Shown piece after piece: positions 47,482 to 51,745 of a DNA stretch of 64,000 nt (its first letter is position 1; every line of letters begins with the position of its first letter). The notes beneath the pieces are model-generated. The model searched no databases and was not told the origin of the DNA. It saw nothing but the letters and a program-made list of their open reading frames with translations. Made by a program: the position numbers and the translations under genes. Origin of the DNA: a bacterium (GTDB taxonomy: Bacteria > Hinthialibacterota > Hinthialibacteria > H5-UNCL2); the NCBI GenBank assembly GCA_015075175.1, contig JABTUV010000006.1, positions 159,271 to 223,270 of the forward strand, given 5' to 3'.

Positions 47482-47577
47482 GTAGGGTGCGCACCGCGCA
47501 CCGCCCGATCACGGTCCGGTAGGGTGCGCACCGCGCACCGCCCAATCACGGTCCGGTAGGGTGCGCACCGCGCACCG
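47482..47577 (+). repeat. Tandem GTAG REP, 37-bp period, 2.6 copies
   Basis: GTAGGGTGCGCACCGCGCACCG at 47482, 47519, 47556 with near-identical linkers. Confidence 0.9.
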
Positions 47578-47662
47578 GGCGCATTTTGCGATACACTTGC
47601 GCTCCGGTTTGGAGTACTAAAGAGGGCATCCAAGCCACGCCGGGCAGGCAGGAGTCTCTTTC

Positions 47663-48670
47663 ATGCGCGCAGGCCGGACGGACTCCGAGTTCCGCTACCG
47701 CATCCAGCGCAGCGAACGGCCCTTCAACTGGTCGCTGTTCCGCGGGCTGTTTCTGATCGCGTGCTGCCTGTTGCTGATCAGTCTCAACGTGCGGAGCGAG
47801 TTCGGCGACTCGCTTTCGTCCTACGTGGTGCTGCCGTTGAACTACATCTATGGGCAGGCGCGGGAGGGCGTCCTGTCGGCAGGGGACGCGGTGGCGCGGC
47901 ACTGGGAGGCGGCGCGGCGGCTTGGCGCGGTCGAGGCGGAGAACGCCGATCTGCGCGACCAGTTGACGGCGCTGTCGCTGGAAGTGACCCAGTATCGCGC
48001 CATGGCGGCGACCTGGGGGTTGCACCAGTATTTCGGGGAGGCGCGCACGTTGCCCGCCGCCGTGATTGCGGTCTCCGACGATCCCCTGCGCCGCACCGCG
48101 CTCCTGGACCGGGGCGAAGTGCACGGCCTGTCCAAGTACATGCCGGTGGTCGTAGCCGGCGCGTCGGGGGAACCCGTACTGGTGGGACGCATCGTGGAGG
48201 TGCGCCCGTATGCCGCCCTCCTCCTGCTCGTGGTGGATCCGCAGAGCGCCGTCGCCGCCGTCGTTGCCAACGAGGTTCTTTCGTCTACCGAGGTTCTTTC
48301 GCCTACTTCTCTCATTGCGACTACCTCTGTCATTTCGACCACCTCTCTCATTTCGACCCCTTCTGTCATTTCGACCGAAGGGAGAAATCTTGTCCACGGC
48401 ATGGTGCGGGGGACGGGGGAGGGGTGCGTGGTGTCCGTACCCCGCGATGCCGAGTTGTCCGCCGGTGATCTCGTCTACACCTCGGGGCGCGGCGTCTATT
48501 TTCCTCCCGATCTTTACCTGGGTCGTATCGCCGGCCAGCATCCGGACGCGGCGGGCCTGGACCTGGTCTACCGGTTGGAGCCAGCCTTTCGCCTCTCCGA
48601 CCTGCGGGAGGTCTTGATTCTGCCCAATCTGTATCGTGATGACGCGCAGAAGTTGGGGGTGGGGCCGTGA
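47663..48670 (+). CDS. mreC: Rod shape-determining protein MreC with a repeat-derived insertion
   Basis: TM, AENADLR coiled coil, LDRG..HGL...MPVV, LVGRIVEV, GDLVYTSG.G..FPPDL.LG; synteny with mreD-mrdA-rodA. Confidence 0.88.
   Translation: MRAGRTDSEFRYRIQRSERPFNWSLFRGLFLIACCLLLISLNVRSEFGDSLSSYVVLPLNYIYGQAREGVLSAGDAVARHWEAARRLGAVEAENADLRDQLTALSLEVTQYRAMAATWGLHQYFGEARTLPAAVIAVSDDPLRRTALLDRGEVHGLSKYMPVVVAGASGEPVLVGRIVEVRPYAALLLLVVDPQSAVAAVVANEVLSSTEVLSPTSLIATTSVISTTSLISTPSVISTEGRNLVHGMVRGTGEGCVVSVPRDAELSAGDLVYTSGRGVYFPPDLYLGRIAGQHPDAAGLDLVYRLEPAFRLSDLREVLILPNLYRDDAQKLGVGP
48272..48391 (+). repeat. Six 18-bp units ending in a full GTCATTTCGACCGAAGGGAGAAATCT, in frame in mreC
   Basis: Encodes EVLSST EVLSPT SLIATT SVISTT SLISTP SVISTE GRNL. 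Confidence 0.88.
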
Positions 48671-49169
48671 AGACAACCTGGCGGCTCGCATCGCCGCGAC
48701 TGCTGTCACCGCGGCGGCTCCTGTCCCTGCGACAACTTTTGTCATTTCGACCGCTCTTGTCATTTCGAACGTTCCTGTCATTTCGACCGCTCCTGTCATT
48801 TCGACCGAAGGGAGAAATCCCCCTGCACCCTCTTGCTCCTCCCAGCACGACACGCAAGATTTCTCCCTCGGTCGAAATGACAACGGCGAGGACGCGCAGA
48901 AGTTGGGGGTGGGGCCGTGAAGACAACCTGGCGGCTCGCATCGCCGCGACTGCTGTCACCGCGGCGGCTCCTGTCCCTGCGACAACTTTTGTCATTTCGA
49001 CCGTTCCTGTCATTTCGACCGTTCCTGTCATTTCGACCGAAGGGAGAAATCCCCCTGCACCCTCTTGCTCCTCCCAGCACCATGCGCAAGATTTCTCCCT
49101 TCGGTCGAAATGACAACGGCGAGGACGCACAGAAGTTGGGGGTGGGGCCGTGAAGACAACCTGGCGGCT
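48641..49169 (+). repeat. Tandem duplication (250 + 233 bp) with three copies of the 46-bp mreC/mreD junction
   Basis: GACGC(G/A)CAGAAGTTGGGGGTGGGGCCGTGAAGACAACCTGGCGGCT at 48641, 48891, 49124; each unit holds a REP inverted pair. Confidence 0.92.
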
Positions 49170-49676
49170 GGTGGTTCTGGGCGTGGTTCTGTGCGGGGCG
49201 CGCTATCTCTTCGCGCCCGACCTCTGCGCGCGCCTGCCGGCCGAGTGGGCGCCGGCCTTGCGGCTGGAACTGCCGCTTTTCTGGTTCTCTATCTGACCTT
49301 GCGGGCCGATACCGGCGTGGCCTTGACCACCGCCTTCTGGACGGGACTTCTGGCCGACATCCTGCTGTTGAACGCTGGCCTGCGGGCGCTGATCTTTCTT
49401 CTCGTCGCCATCGTACCCGATCTGTTGCGCAAGTATCTGCTGGTCGAAGGCTCCTCCCAGGCTGGTTCTTTCTCATGGGAGGTTGGCGCTGCTGGCGTTC
49501 CTGGTCCCCATCGTGGAACCGACGGAGCGGGCCTGCTGCCGCTCATGCGCCGGCCGGACTATTGGCGCGGGTTGGGCGTTTACGTTCTGTCCAACACGCT
49601 GTTCATGGTTCCGCTGCTCGGCTTACTGGATTTTGTGCGGCGGCGGTTCAAACTGCTGGAGGAGGGAGAGCCGTGA
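49150..49676 (+). CDS. mreD: Rod shape-determining protein MreD (frameshifted)
   Basis: GTG at 49150; hydrophobic; AFWTGLLADILL...GLRAL; lies between mreC and PBP2. Confidence 0.65.
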
Positions 49677-51498
49677 AGAAGGCCGCGCGCGGCAAGCCCC
49701 AGGCGCCTCCTGCCGCGCCCAGGCGCACGTTGTGCGCCTGGGTGTGCTCGTGCTTGTGGTGGTCGCGCTGCTGGGCTTCCGCGTCTGGGTGCTGCAACTG
49801 GTGGAAGGCGAGAAGTATCGGTACCAGGCCACGCTCAACTATCAGAAGGAAGTGGTCGTGCCGGCGCTGCGCGGCGACATCCTGGACGCCCAGGGCCGGC
49901 TATTGGCTGCCAATCGTTCCCGCTACGACCTGGTAGTGGACACGGGTCATTACAACACCAAGGTCCTGCACGGCAGCCTGTGGCGGTTGGCGCCGGTGCT
50001 GGAGCAGTCGCCGCGCGAACTCATCTCCGCTTTGGAACGCGCCCCCAAGGTGCTGGGCGAGGCAGTGCTGATCGCCAACGTCTCCGACGATCTGCGCATC
50101 AAGCTCCTGGAACTACAATCGGAATTGCCGGGCCTGTCGGTAGCCGAGAAGGCCCTGCGCTATTATCCCAACGGCGTGATCGGCGGACACGCGGTGGGTT
50201 ACATCCAGGAAGTCAGCGCGCGCGAACTGGAACGCGGCCTGAGCAGCGAATACGCCGCGGGCGACATGATCGGTCGCACCGGCCTGGAGGCGGCGGGCGA
50301 GCCTTGGCTGCGTGGCAAAAAGGGCCGAAAAACCGTGCGCGTGTTCGCCAGCGGGGTCGAGGACACCCGCTTCTACAGCGACGAAATCCGCCCCGACGAC
50401 GAGAAGGAGGTCCCCGGACTCACCCTTCAGAGCCATCTCGACCTGGACCTGCAGGCCCACTGCGAGGCGATTCTGGGCGCCTCGATCGGCAGCATCGTGG
50501 TGCTGGGCGCGTCCGGCGAAGTCCTGGCGCTGGCCAGCTACCCCCGCTTTGATCCCAACAACCTCACCGACTCGCGCCGGCGGACCATCCGCGAAAACCG
50601 TAACGAGTTCTTCGGCGCCATCGCGGGGACCTGGGAACCGGGATCGGTCTACAAGATGGTGGTGGCCTACGGCGGCCTCCTTGAGGGCAAGATCAATCCG
50701 CGCGAGACCGTCTTCTGCTCCGGCAGCATCATGCGGGGTAAATTCAAGTACACCTGCATGTCCAAGTGGGGTCACGGCAGCGTGGACATGCTCACCGCCA
50801 TCCAGAAGTCGTGCAACGTCTACTTTTACACGGTCGGCGAGCGTCTGGGCGTGGACAACCTGGAGAAGTACTCGCGCATGTTCAGCTTCGGCGCGCCGAC
50901 CGGTCTGGACATTCCAGGCGAGACGGGTGGTTTCATCCCCTCGCGGGCCATGAAGAAGGCCCGATTCGGCGGTTCCCGCTACCACGCCTACGGCGAGTGG
51001 CTGCCGGGGGAGACGCTGCACTCGTCCATCGGGCAGGCGCTCACGCAGGTGACGCCCCTGCAGGTCGCCGTCTACGGCCACGTGCTGGCCAGTCGCGGAC
51101 AGGGCTACCACCCCTCGCTCTTGTGGCGCGTATGGGACCGCGACCGGCTCGTCCACGAGTTTTCGCCCCGACCGCTGGACCCCATGCCCGTCGACGAGAG
51201 GGCCTTCGCCGTACTGGACGAGGGCATGTGGCGCGTGGTCAACCTGCCCAACGGAACCGCCTACAAGGCGCATCGGCCCGGCCTCTCCGTCTGCGGCAAA
51301 ACCGGCTCCTCCGAGCATCCCGGCAGCAAGACCCGCGGCGAGCCGACCCACGCCTGGTTCGTCGGCTACGGCCCGCGCGAGCATCCCCGCTATACCGTCG
51401 CGGTCTTTCTGGCCAAGGCCGGGCACGGCGGCGAATTCGCCGCGCCCCTGGCAATGGAGGTATTCGAGCGGCTCCTGGCTGATGCCCTTGCATCGTGA
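49673..51498 (+). CDS. mrdA: Penicillin-binding protein 2 (frameshift near 49725)
   Basis: RGDILDAQG, RYYP, IGRTGLE, EPGSVYK (SxxK), SCN, KTG, HAWF. Confidence 0.9.
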
Positions 51499-51745
51499 TC
51501 TTAATCGCAGTCGTGTTCGTGCTTGCAGTCGTGTTCACGCCAGCGGCCCGCTGTCATTTCGACCGAAGGGAGCAATCCTGCTATCCTCGCGGCATGGAGG
51601 GCAAGGCGAGGGGAGATTTCTCCCGTCGGTCGAAGATTTCTCCCTTCGGTCGAAATGACAGGGGCGTGTTCGTAATCGTGCTCGTGCTCGATTAAGAGTA
51701 AGATTATGAACAAGATTAAGATTAGGAGTAGGACTAGGATCAAGA
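51493..51745. repeat. Hexamer array interrupted by a GTCATTTCGACC REP cassette
   Basis: Hexamers 51493-51537 and 51666-51745; REP arms at 51552-51577, 51614-51633, 51634-51660. Confidence 0.85.

Follow-up and report, generated by a model that had tools for sequence, protein, structure and literature searches.

The window analysed here, a stretch of 64,000 nucleotides, belongs to a MAG of 4.98 Mb with 65% G+C, which comprises 49 contigs, is 84% complete, and is the sole member of its order among the genomes compared. It contains an operon with the cell-shape genes mreC and mreD, followed by mrdA (Table 1). The encoded MreC has a relative, P0004, with 63% identity over the aligned columns and with its C-terminus at the same alignment position, while MreC proteins of 30 relatives from the same class are distant (24-40% identity). 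A 55%-identical MreD, P0002, is encoded on the same 6435-bp contig as P0004. In a tblastn search, amino acids 1-47 of P0002 matched one frame and amino acids 30-179 another, and the match begins at 49150. The N-terminus of P0002, MRTTWKLVVL, therefore identifies the GTG at 49150 as the true start of mreD. The transitions from mreC to mreD and from mreD to mrdA are alike, both having a GTGA stop/start overlap with a G-rich stretch upstream; at the latter, the mreD stop is overlapped by the GTG of mrdA at 49673 (repeat family D5). Because both junctions share this layout, translational coupling is probably the native design of the operon.

Table 1. Features of the mreC-mreD-mrdA region (positions refer to the window)
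Feature	Position	Strand	Remarks
mreC CDS (335 aa)	47663..48670	+	Pfam MreC PF04085, E 5.6e-24; stop TGA 48668-48670
In-frame insert in mreC, 120 nt (40 aa)	48281..48400	+	five 18-bp partial-arm repeats and one complete left arm of the hairpin family
Junction copy A1	48641..48686	+	last 9 mreC codons, G-rich Shine-Dalgarno-like run, GTG 48667 over TGA 48668
ORF from the A1 GTG as assembled, 148 aa	48667..49113	+	ends 36 nt before the mreD start
Cassette E1, 204 nt	48687..48890	+	decaying 18-bp array, hairpin 48794-48882, 8-nt linker; X1 contig 48724-48819 exact
Junction copy A2 (identical to A1)	48891..48936	+	GTG 48917, TGA 48918; X4 contig 48891-49019 exact
Mini-ORF 2, 78 aa	48917..49153	+	from the A2 GTG to the TGA overlapping the mreD GTG; begins MKTTWRL, ends DAQKLGVGP
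Cassette E2, 187 nt	48937..49123	+	array shorter than in E1 by one 18-bp repeat; hairpin 49026-49115 with 26 bp perfectly paired; 8-nt linker
Junction copy A3, with the working mreD GTG	49124..49169	+	GTG 49150, TGA 49151; X1 contig 49090-49159 exact; contigs of three runs begin at 49140 and run into mreD
mreD	49150..49676	+	split over frames, almost certainly by single-base deletions of the assembly; tblastn with relative P0002
mrdA (PBP2)	49673..51498	+	Pfam PBP_dimer and Transpeptidase; N-terminal frame also disturbed in the assembly

The 46-bp junction that contains the mreC stop and the mreD start is present three times (A1 to A3), with two hairpin cassettes (E1 and E2) in between, as the initial annotation had described; the starts of the copies are 250 and then 233 nt apart. 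GTGA overlaps are accordingly found at 48667-48670, 48917-48920 and 49150-49153, and again at 49673-49676 in front of mrdA, so that all four sites show the overlapping or abutting codons by which coupled gene pairs are defined. The only difference in the third copy, G to A at 49129, is synonymous when read in the mreC frame. This triplication is far beyond chance, and the junction, the 53 nt 3' of it and both cassette loops are unique to this locus in the 4.98-Mb genome. Each cassette consists of a run of 18-bp partial-arm repeats, which become less similar with increasing distance from the arm, a hairpin made of 26-nt arms around a 38-nt loop, and a linker of 8 nt. The predicted folding energies of the hairpins are -53.8 kcal/mol (E1) and -55.1 kcal/mol (E2), and none of 200 shuffled sequences was as stable. 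The two cassettes are 98% identical, and the two units, each comprising a junction copy and the following cassette, differ at six places, namely, an 18-bp repeat and a T, each present in one of them only, and four substitutions. Near-identical head-to-tail units of 250 and 233 nt are the hallmark of a tandem duplication. The stems are not followed by a T run, no terminator-like sites were found in the cassettes, and the region scanned contains no promoter-like sites.

The second unit is bridged exactly by a short reading frame, mini-ORF 2, which starts like MreD, ends like MreC and leads into mreD via GTGA; the ORF list contains it just as originally proposed. The first unit lacks one T at 48868/48869, which leaves its right arm (48858-48882) with 25 nt. 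The earlier arithmetic on this unit is correct: with the T it would have a length of 251 nt (2 mod 3) and would encode an 84-aa ORF ending at the second TGA, at 48920. As assembled, the frame opened by the first GTG runs on into the second cassette. Unit lengths other than 2 mod 3 would result either in an N-terminally extended MreD or in an ORF that overruns the mreD start out of frame. However, the cassettes are largely open in each of the three forward frames (ORFs 48636-48920, 48667-49113 and 48917-49153), and thus only the length class, with a chance of one in three, is informative; in addition, the two units derive from a single event. Among 511 candidate proteins, which covered the length range of 42-137 aa only, no homolog of the mini-ORFs scored. 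The mini-ORFs may still be translated.

The same repeat family also reaches into mreC, 300 bp upstream. The mreC gene contains an in-frame insert of 40 codons, exactly these 40 residues are missing from P0004, and the sequence is conserved on either side of the gap. The short-read contigs of four runs show no differences from the insert (X1, X2 and X3 up to 48389, X4 up to 48390). Judged by this alignment, the hairpin repeat is demonstrably part of the translated sequence of mreC. An in-frame repeat in a conserved gene that is absent from the orthologue resembles RPEs, which applies to the mreC insert only. It is the one case confirmed by a homolog among six candidate loci of the family inside ORFs.

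Parts of the stretch were found in 20 public runs from 14 studies of wastewater, sludge and bioreactors, and none of the public runs searched that contain it is an RNA run. Contigs of four of these runs (X1 to X4), one each from four independent sludge or wastewater studies, were compared with the window. Upstream of the cassettes, from 47600 to 48686, the contigs of all four are identical to the window with 0 gaps. Downstream of 49140 the contigs have extra letters: between 49140 and 50600 there are 11 gaps in X1, 6 and 3 in two contigs of X2, 7 and 4 in X3, and 7 in X4, and contigs over the mrdA stretch have 4-7 gaps. A T behind 49276 and a G behind 49376 are present in the contigs of X1, X2 and X3, and letters are inserted behind 49276, 49369, 49370 and 49376 in contigs of two to three runs. 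Compared with the contigs, the assembly thus contains at least 11 single-base deletions within 1.46 kb downstream of the junction. The frame breaks of mreD revealed by P0002 coincide with the extra letters, and therefore the window carries single-base deletions which break mreD and disturb the start of mrdA; these deletions are almost certainly assembly errors. Local errors of this kind break real genes, which is a warning to users of this assembly.

The contigs also bear on the cassettes themselves. In the four runs the contigs extend from mreC into A1 and end at 48670-48686, restart at 48891/48907, stop at 49003/49019 and restart at 49140. These are the graph branches expected for a junction that has two different neighbours on either side, and at least one cassette is thus present in all four runs. 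Run X1 contains a 96-nt contig specific for unit 1 (48724-48819, exact, depth 11.7) as well as a contig common to both units (48907-49003), which ends where the units diverge and has a depth of 20.4 compared with 11.2-12.8 in the flanks. In the short-read contigs of X1, therefore, both unit types are seen and two distinct units are supported. The depth of the common contig is also about doubled in X2 (11.1 versus 5.0-5.4 in the flanks), whereas in X3 the corresponding contig is of the unit 2 type only and has about single depth (8.6 versus 12.1 and 6.3). Contig depth is a weak measure of copy number, and rare variants are dropped from contigs, so that these values hint only weakly that X1 and X2 have two units and that X3 may have a single one. 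Among the contigs listed, no exact one covers 48820-48890 or 49020-49089, i.e., the two loops and the right arm of unit 1; the single-base frame arithmetic in these parts, and also the length of unit 2, are therefore those of the assembly.

The hairpins belong to a large repeat family, with 223 exact copies of the 26-nt arm in the genome, 424 copies within three substitutions, and 474 within three edits. The arms form 179 inverted pairs, 165 of which have a spacer of 31-38 nt, and each loop is unique among the pairs listed. A candidate origin of the cassette loop, an inverted copy of the mreC sequence behind the half-arm, was discarded, because 158 of 2000 shuffled sequences matched no worse and equal scores were obtained with other loops. 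Nearly half of the arms (227/474) are accompanied by one to eight outward partial copies of their first 12-14 nt. The period of these arrays is locus-specific, with 22, 18, 19 and 17 nt being the commonest, and 107 of 379 spacings in the eight commonest classes are divisible by three. One-base deletions in the arms (about 12 of 474) outnumber internal insertions (about 4-5), and the AA-to-A loss seen in unit 1 affects 2/474 arms. A crude gene call placed 210 of 230 loci between genes and 6 within ORFs, with 13 touching the end of a gene. The genome contains two genes for Y1-transposase-like proteins (PF01797), one of which is flanked by a different repeat; no arm lies within 3 kb of either gene in this 84% complete genome. 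Rfam returned a chance match only (E 0.6). Identical copies of the 26-mer are present in over 114 stretches from a very diverse set of named genomes, among them Flavobacterium isolates, Ignavibacteria, Desulfobacterales, Riflebacteria, Anaerolineae and one archaeal MAG. Its distribution within the class is uneven. With at most two mismatches, the present genome has 394 arms; of the 30 relatives, one has 73, five have 2-13 and 24 have none.

It had been proposed that the insertion of a cassette duplicated a long target. The family speaks against this, because the flanks of the 149 anchorable pairs (out of 179) share no more than shuffled pairings do, i.e., no target site duplication (TSD) of the MITE type was found. 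The three copies of the junction are thus not what an ordinary insertion would have left behind. Among the 179 pairs, just three loci have long direct repeats on either side. Apart from the present one, these are tandem arrays in plain intergenic sequence, with the layout X-hairpin-X-hairpin-X and with units of 211/217 nt and 118/118 nt, respectively. No other duplicated stop/start junction is present in the genome. In a survey with loose limits (+/-25 nt) and crude gene starts, bridging ORFs were found at 10 of 127 co-directional hairpin loci; the one case looked at more closely (G000:C34:357644) has the appearance of a single gene that the repeat or a frameshift has split. Searches beyond this genome did not recover the junction: metagenome contigs yielded 598 pattern matches to the MreC C-terminus, 0 of them confirmed, and 0 matches to a 30-nt junction word, and genome contigs yielded 424 pattern matches to the MreD relative, again with 0 confirmed. 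In the literature, searched largely outside the subscription journals, neither a report of a chain of repeat-encoded decoy ORFs between coupled genes nor a match to sequence words of the repeat was found.

The explanation that we favor, with a probability of about 60%, is a tolerated tandem duplication in which the last junction copy is the working start of mreD and the mini-ORFs are by-products. A segment comprising the mreC-stop/mreD-start junction, one hairpin repeat and its 18-bp array would have been duplicated locally in tandem, presumably by unequal recombination or slippage, resulting in the layout junction-cassette-junction-cassette-junction. Since the third junction precedes the intact body of mreD and has retained both the GTGA and the G-rich stretch for ribosome binding of the native arrangement, the mreD start would still be usable, and the arrangement may have been tolerated in an essential operon by virtue of this third copy. 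The first two junction copies would then be decoy starts that open repeat-encoded mini-ORFs. As mini-ORF 2 ends exactly on the mreD start, the last step might still be termination-reinitiation; this hand-over would be most simply a by-product, with the length class 2 mod 3 doing the least harm, and a device for relaying or dosing ribosomes would not be needed. Some aspects fit this explanation less well. The clean ending of unit 2 on the mreD start agrees with selection for hand-over as well as with chance, and the period of 18 bp, a multiple of three, keeps the frame despite the different numbers of array copies in the two units, which counts against mere by-products. Moreover, a simple tandem duplication of an ordinary insertion does not explain how the first junction-cassette-junction state arose.

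It could alternatively be envisaged that ribosomes are passed from mreC via mini-ORF 1 and mini-ORF 2 to mreD and melt the hairpins on their way, and that selection keeps this chain, with the number of units setting the MreC:MreD ratio. Unit 2 as an exact start-to-stop ORF between two GTGA overlaps is what such a chain requires, and GTGA is used at both native junctions, with the G-rich stretch and the GTG retained in each junction copy. The T that unit 1 lacks would belong to an AA/TT run, and its absence may be one more error of an assembly with at least 11 one-base deletions nearby. Losses of this type are rare in the family. The frame-preserving period, the harm expected from every length class other than 2 mod 3, the hint of copy-number variation between X3 and the other two runs, and the translated repeat in mreC all point in the same direction. 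However, the frame has a one-in-three chance, and unit 1, being a copy of unit 2, is not an independent case. As assembled, unit 1 even breaks the chain, and the earlier suggestion that the insertion preserved ribosome hand-over is only partly supported, in that unit 2 ends exactly at the true mreD start. The ribosome-binding stretch of the third junction itself lies 23 nt past the hairpin, so that mreD needs no relay, and the bridging ORFs of the loose survey, the 511 candidates without a mini-ORF homolog, the lack of RNA runs with this stretch and the singularity of the duplicated junction in the genome do not favor the idea either. Passing ribosomes along a chain is attractive; it rests on a one-in-three coincidence of frame and on one base for which the assembly cannot vouch, and we regard it as unlikely. 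A bolder version, which is clearly improbable, is that this hairpin repeat, which is shared across phyla, may survive in a tightly coupled junction of an essential operon only where it is flanked on both sides by a stop/start overlap, so that ribosomes would travel from mreC to mreD via hairpins and decoy ORFs, and the number of links (about two for X1 and X2, possibly a single one for X3) would vary between natural populations and set the dose of MreD.

Two further explanations do not involve the mini-ORFs. In enterobacteria, intercistronic palindromic repeats are known to affect the processing and stability of mRNAs, and the two 26-bp hairpins, which are perfect or nearly so, might similarly be targets of a double-strand-specific RNase or barriers for exonucleases, thereby uncoupling mreD and mrdA from mreC. 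The high stability of the hairpins, their intercistronic position and the mainly intergenic location of the family in the crude gene call would be in agreement with such a role. However, the stems lack a following T run, the duplication of the junction itself would not be accounted for, and ribosomes reading through from the decoy GTGs would melt the hairpins, which makes a role at the RNA level very unlikely. It is highly improbable that the second unit was miscounted or invented by the long-read assembler and that the true locus has one cassette or none. The poor local quality of the assembly, with 6-11 letters inserted in the contigs over 49140-50600, another tandem hairpin locus, whose third copy is full of one-base deletions, and the single-depth contig of X3 with unit 2 only would fit an artefact. 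However, both contexts on each side of the junction recur in all four runs, so that at least one cassette is real, the exact unit-1-specific contig of X1 and the roughly double depth of its common contig argue for the second one, and six differences between the units are not a product of collapse or expansion errors.

Whichever explanation applies, the insert in mreC and the junction locus exemplify that this hairpin repeat family reaches translated sequence. If a chain of coupled mini-ORFs works, selfish hairpin repeats would have a novel means of residing in a coupled essential operon without disrupting it, and the number of copies would be a simple dial for how much of one cell-shape protein is made relative to the other. 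Nature provides a clean test case here, with one junction signal three times in a row and only one informative base in doubt.

Several known systems share features with this locus. In-frame fusions of palindromic elements or MITEs with genes, including those of Rickettsia, are described in a review on MITEs (PMC10969869), and the 40-aa insert in MreC resembles these Rickettsia palindromic elements and intragenic MITEs in that a palindromic repeat is tolerated in frame within a coding gene. However, unlike the Rickettsia elements, mreC holds only one half-arm together with the 18-bp array, and the junction cassettes lie between genes. The family as a whole is reminiscent of the REP/BIME elements and REPIN doublets of proteobacteria, i.e., short palindromic repeats with hundreds of mainly extragenic copies, two inverted arms that form a hairpin, no target duplication, and occasional positions within operons. 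In contrast to REP and REPIN elements, which are mobilised by RAYT transposases, no RAYT (Y1 transposase) gene is flanked by the arm. REPINs are copied as whole units, whereas here the loop is unique in every pair listed and both loops of this locus are found nowhere else in the genome. The present arm does not begin with the GTAG motif of REPs, about half of the arms have an outward partial-arm array, and the identical 26-mer occurs in many phyla. The family therefore fails two defining tests of REPs and REPINs, namely, a flanked RAYT gene and copied loops. The junction itself is like other examples of translational coupling by stop/start overlap, since GTGA and the G-rich stretch have been retained in each duplicated copy; the difference from ordinary coupled pairs is the chain of repeat-encoded decoy ORFs between the two genes. 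The 98%-identical head-to-tail units, together with the two other loci of the type X-hairpin-X-hairpin-X, are like tandem duplications generated by unequal recombination or slippage. However, at those two loci the duplicated X is not a gene junction, as it is here, where its duplication made new start and stop signals. The locus thus combines a palindromic repeat and a tandem duplication at a coupled junction, and it is a real and unusual local structure.

The sequence downstream of the two hairpin-bearing cassettes at the mreC/mreD junction almost certainly contains assembly errors. Compared with short-read contigs from three to four independent runs, the region 49276-50600 carries at least 11 single-base deletions, which break mreD and disturb the start of mrdA. 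In the same comparison, the 1.09 kb on the 5' side of the cassettes contains zero such deletions, and the change in error density coincides with the tandem repeat. Further features around mreC-mreD-mrdA and elsewhere are compiled in the table.

Features in the window, in its own genome (G000, contig and position) and in one other genome
Feature	Location	Details
Tandem repeat	window 47482-47577	37 bp x 2.6 copies, 98% matches; immediately 5' of mreC
In-frame insert in mreC	window 48281-48400	40 aa; hairpin-family sequence comprising five 18-bp partial-arm repeats plus one left arm
Further hairpin-family copies	window 51482-51695	immediately 3' of mrdA
Tandem duplication of a hairpin-bearing segment	G000:C1:755056-755690	units of 211/217 nt; intergenic
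Tandem duplication of a hairpin-bearing segment	G000:C1:455870-456118	units of 118/118 nt; intergenic
Single open frame, hairpin locus L130	G000:C4:116763-119852	alcohol-dehydrogenase-like part, complete hairpin, FAD-oxidoreductase part
Outward partial-copy array (example)	G000:C1:1125970	
Outward partial-copy array (example)	G000:C2:98709	
Y1-transposase (RAYT-like) gene	G000:C46:238062-238388	30 kb from the mreC/mreD junction
Five head-to-tail hairpin units	locus L083, Anaerolineales MAG	84-bp period (28 codons); in an apparent coding region beside methylase-like sequence

The hairpin-family sequence inserted into mreC falls within the MreC barrel domain, and in an alignment with a 63%-identical MreC relative exactly these 40 residues are absent. 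On the 5' side, the 37-bp tandem repeat lies between mreC and a divergent DNA methylase gene. The ORF list of the window contains typical hairpin-family peptides in two frames of the copies that follow mrdA.

Throughout the genome, the family follows a common architecture. For 227 of the 474 arms, roughly half, the first 12-14 nt of the arm recur outward as tandem partial copies, with a period that is specific for the locus and ranges from 15 to 23 nt. Where such arrays were read in detail, in mreC and at the mreC/mreD junction, the similarity of these copies to the arm falls off outward. To our knowledge, no mechanism has been described for such outward arrays of partial arms. The arms are identical in 223 cases; the loops are unique in all listed hairpin pairs of the 179 in the genome, and the loop length is kept to about 31-38 nt. 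A target-site duplication was looked for at the 149 hairpin pairs that could be anchored, and none was seen. According to a crude genome-wide gene call, 68 hairpin loci lie between divergent genes versus 15 between convergent genes; from the total lengths of these regions (236 kb and 142 kb, respectively), the expected ratio is about 1.7 to 1. Both flanks of the RAYT-like gene, read in translation, bear a different short repeat, which does not belong to the hairpin family.

Duplications of hairpin-bearing segments also occur at intergenic sites, and the third copy of the array with 211/217-nt units carries many one-base deletions. The single open frame that runs through a complete hairpin may represent a repeat-mediated fusion, a lost stop codon or an assembly frameshift.

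The hairpin arm matched no Rfam family, and a literature search with the arm sequence found no paper on this 26-nt repeat. Within the class to which the window belongs the distribution of the arm is patchy, and it is absent in 24 of 30 relatives. The exact 26-nt arm is present in more than 114 stretches of named genomes from many phyla (loci L013-L126), and its carriers include cultured Flavobacterium species as well as one archaeal MAG.
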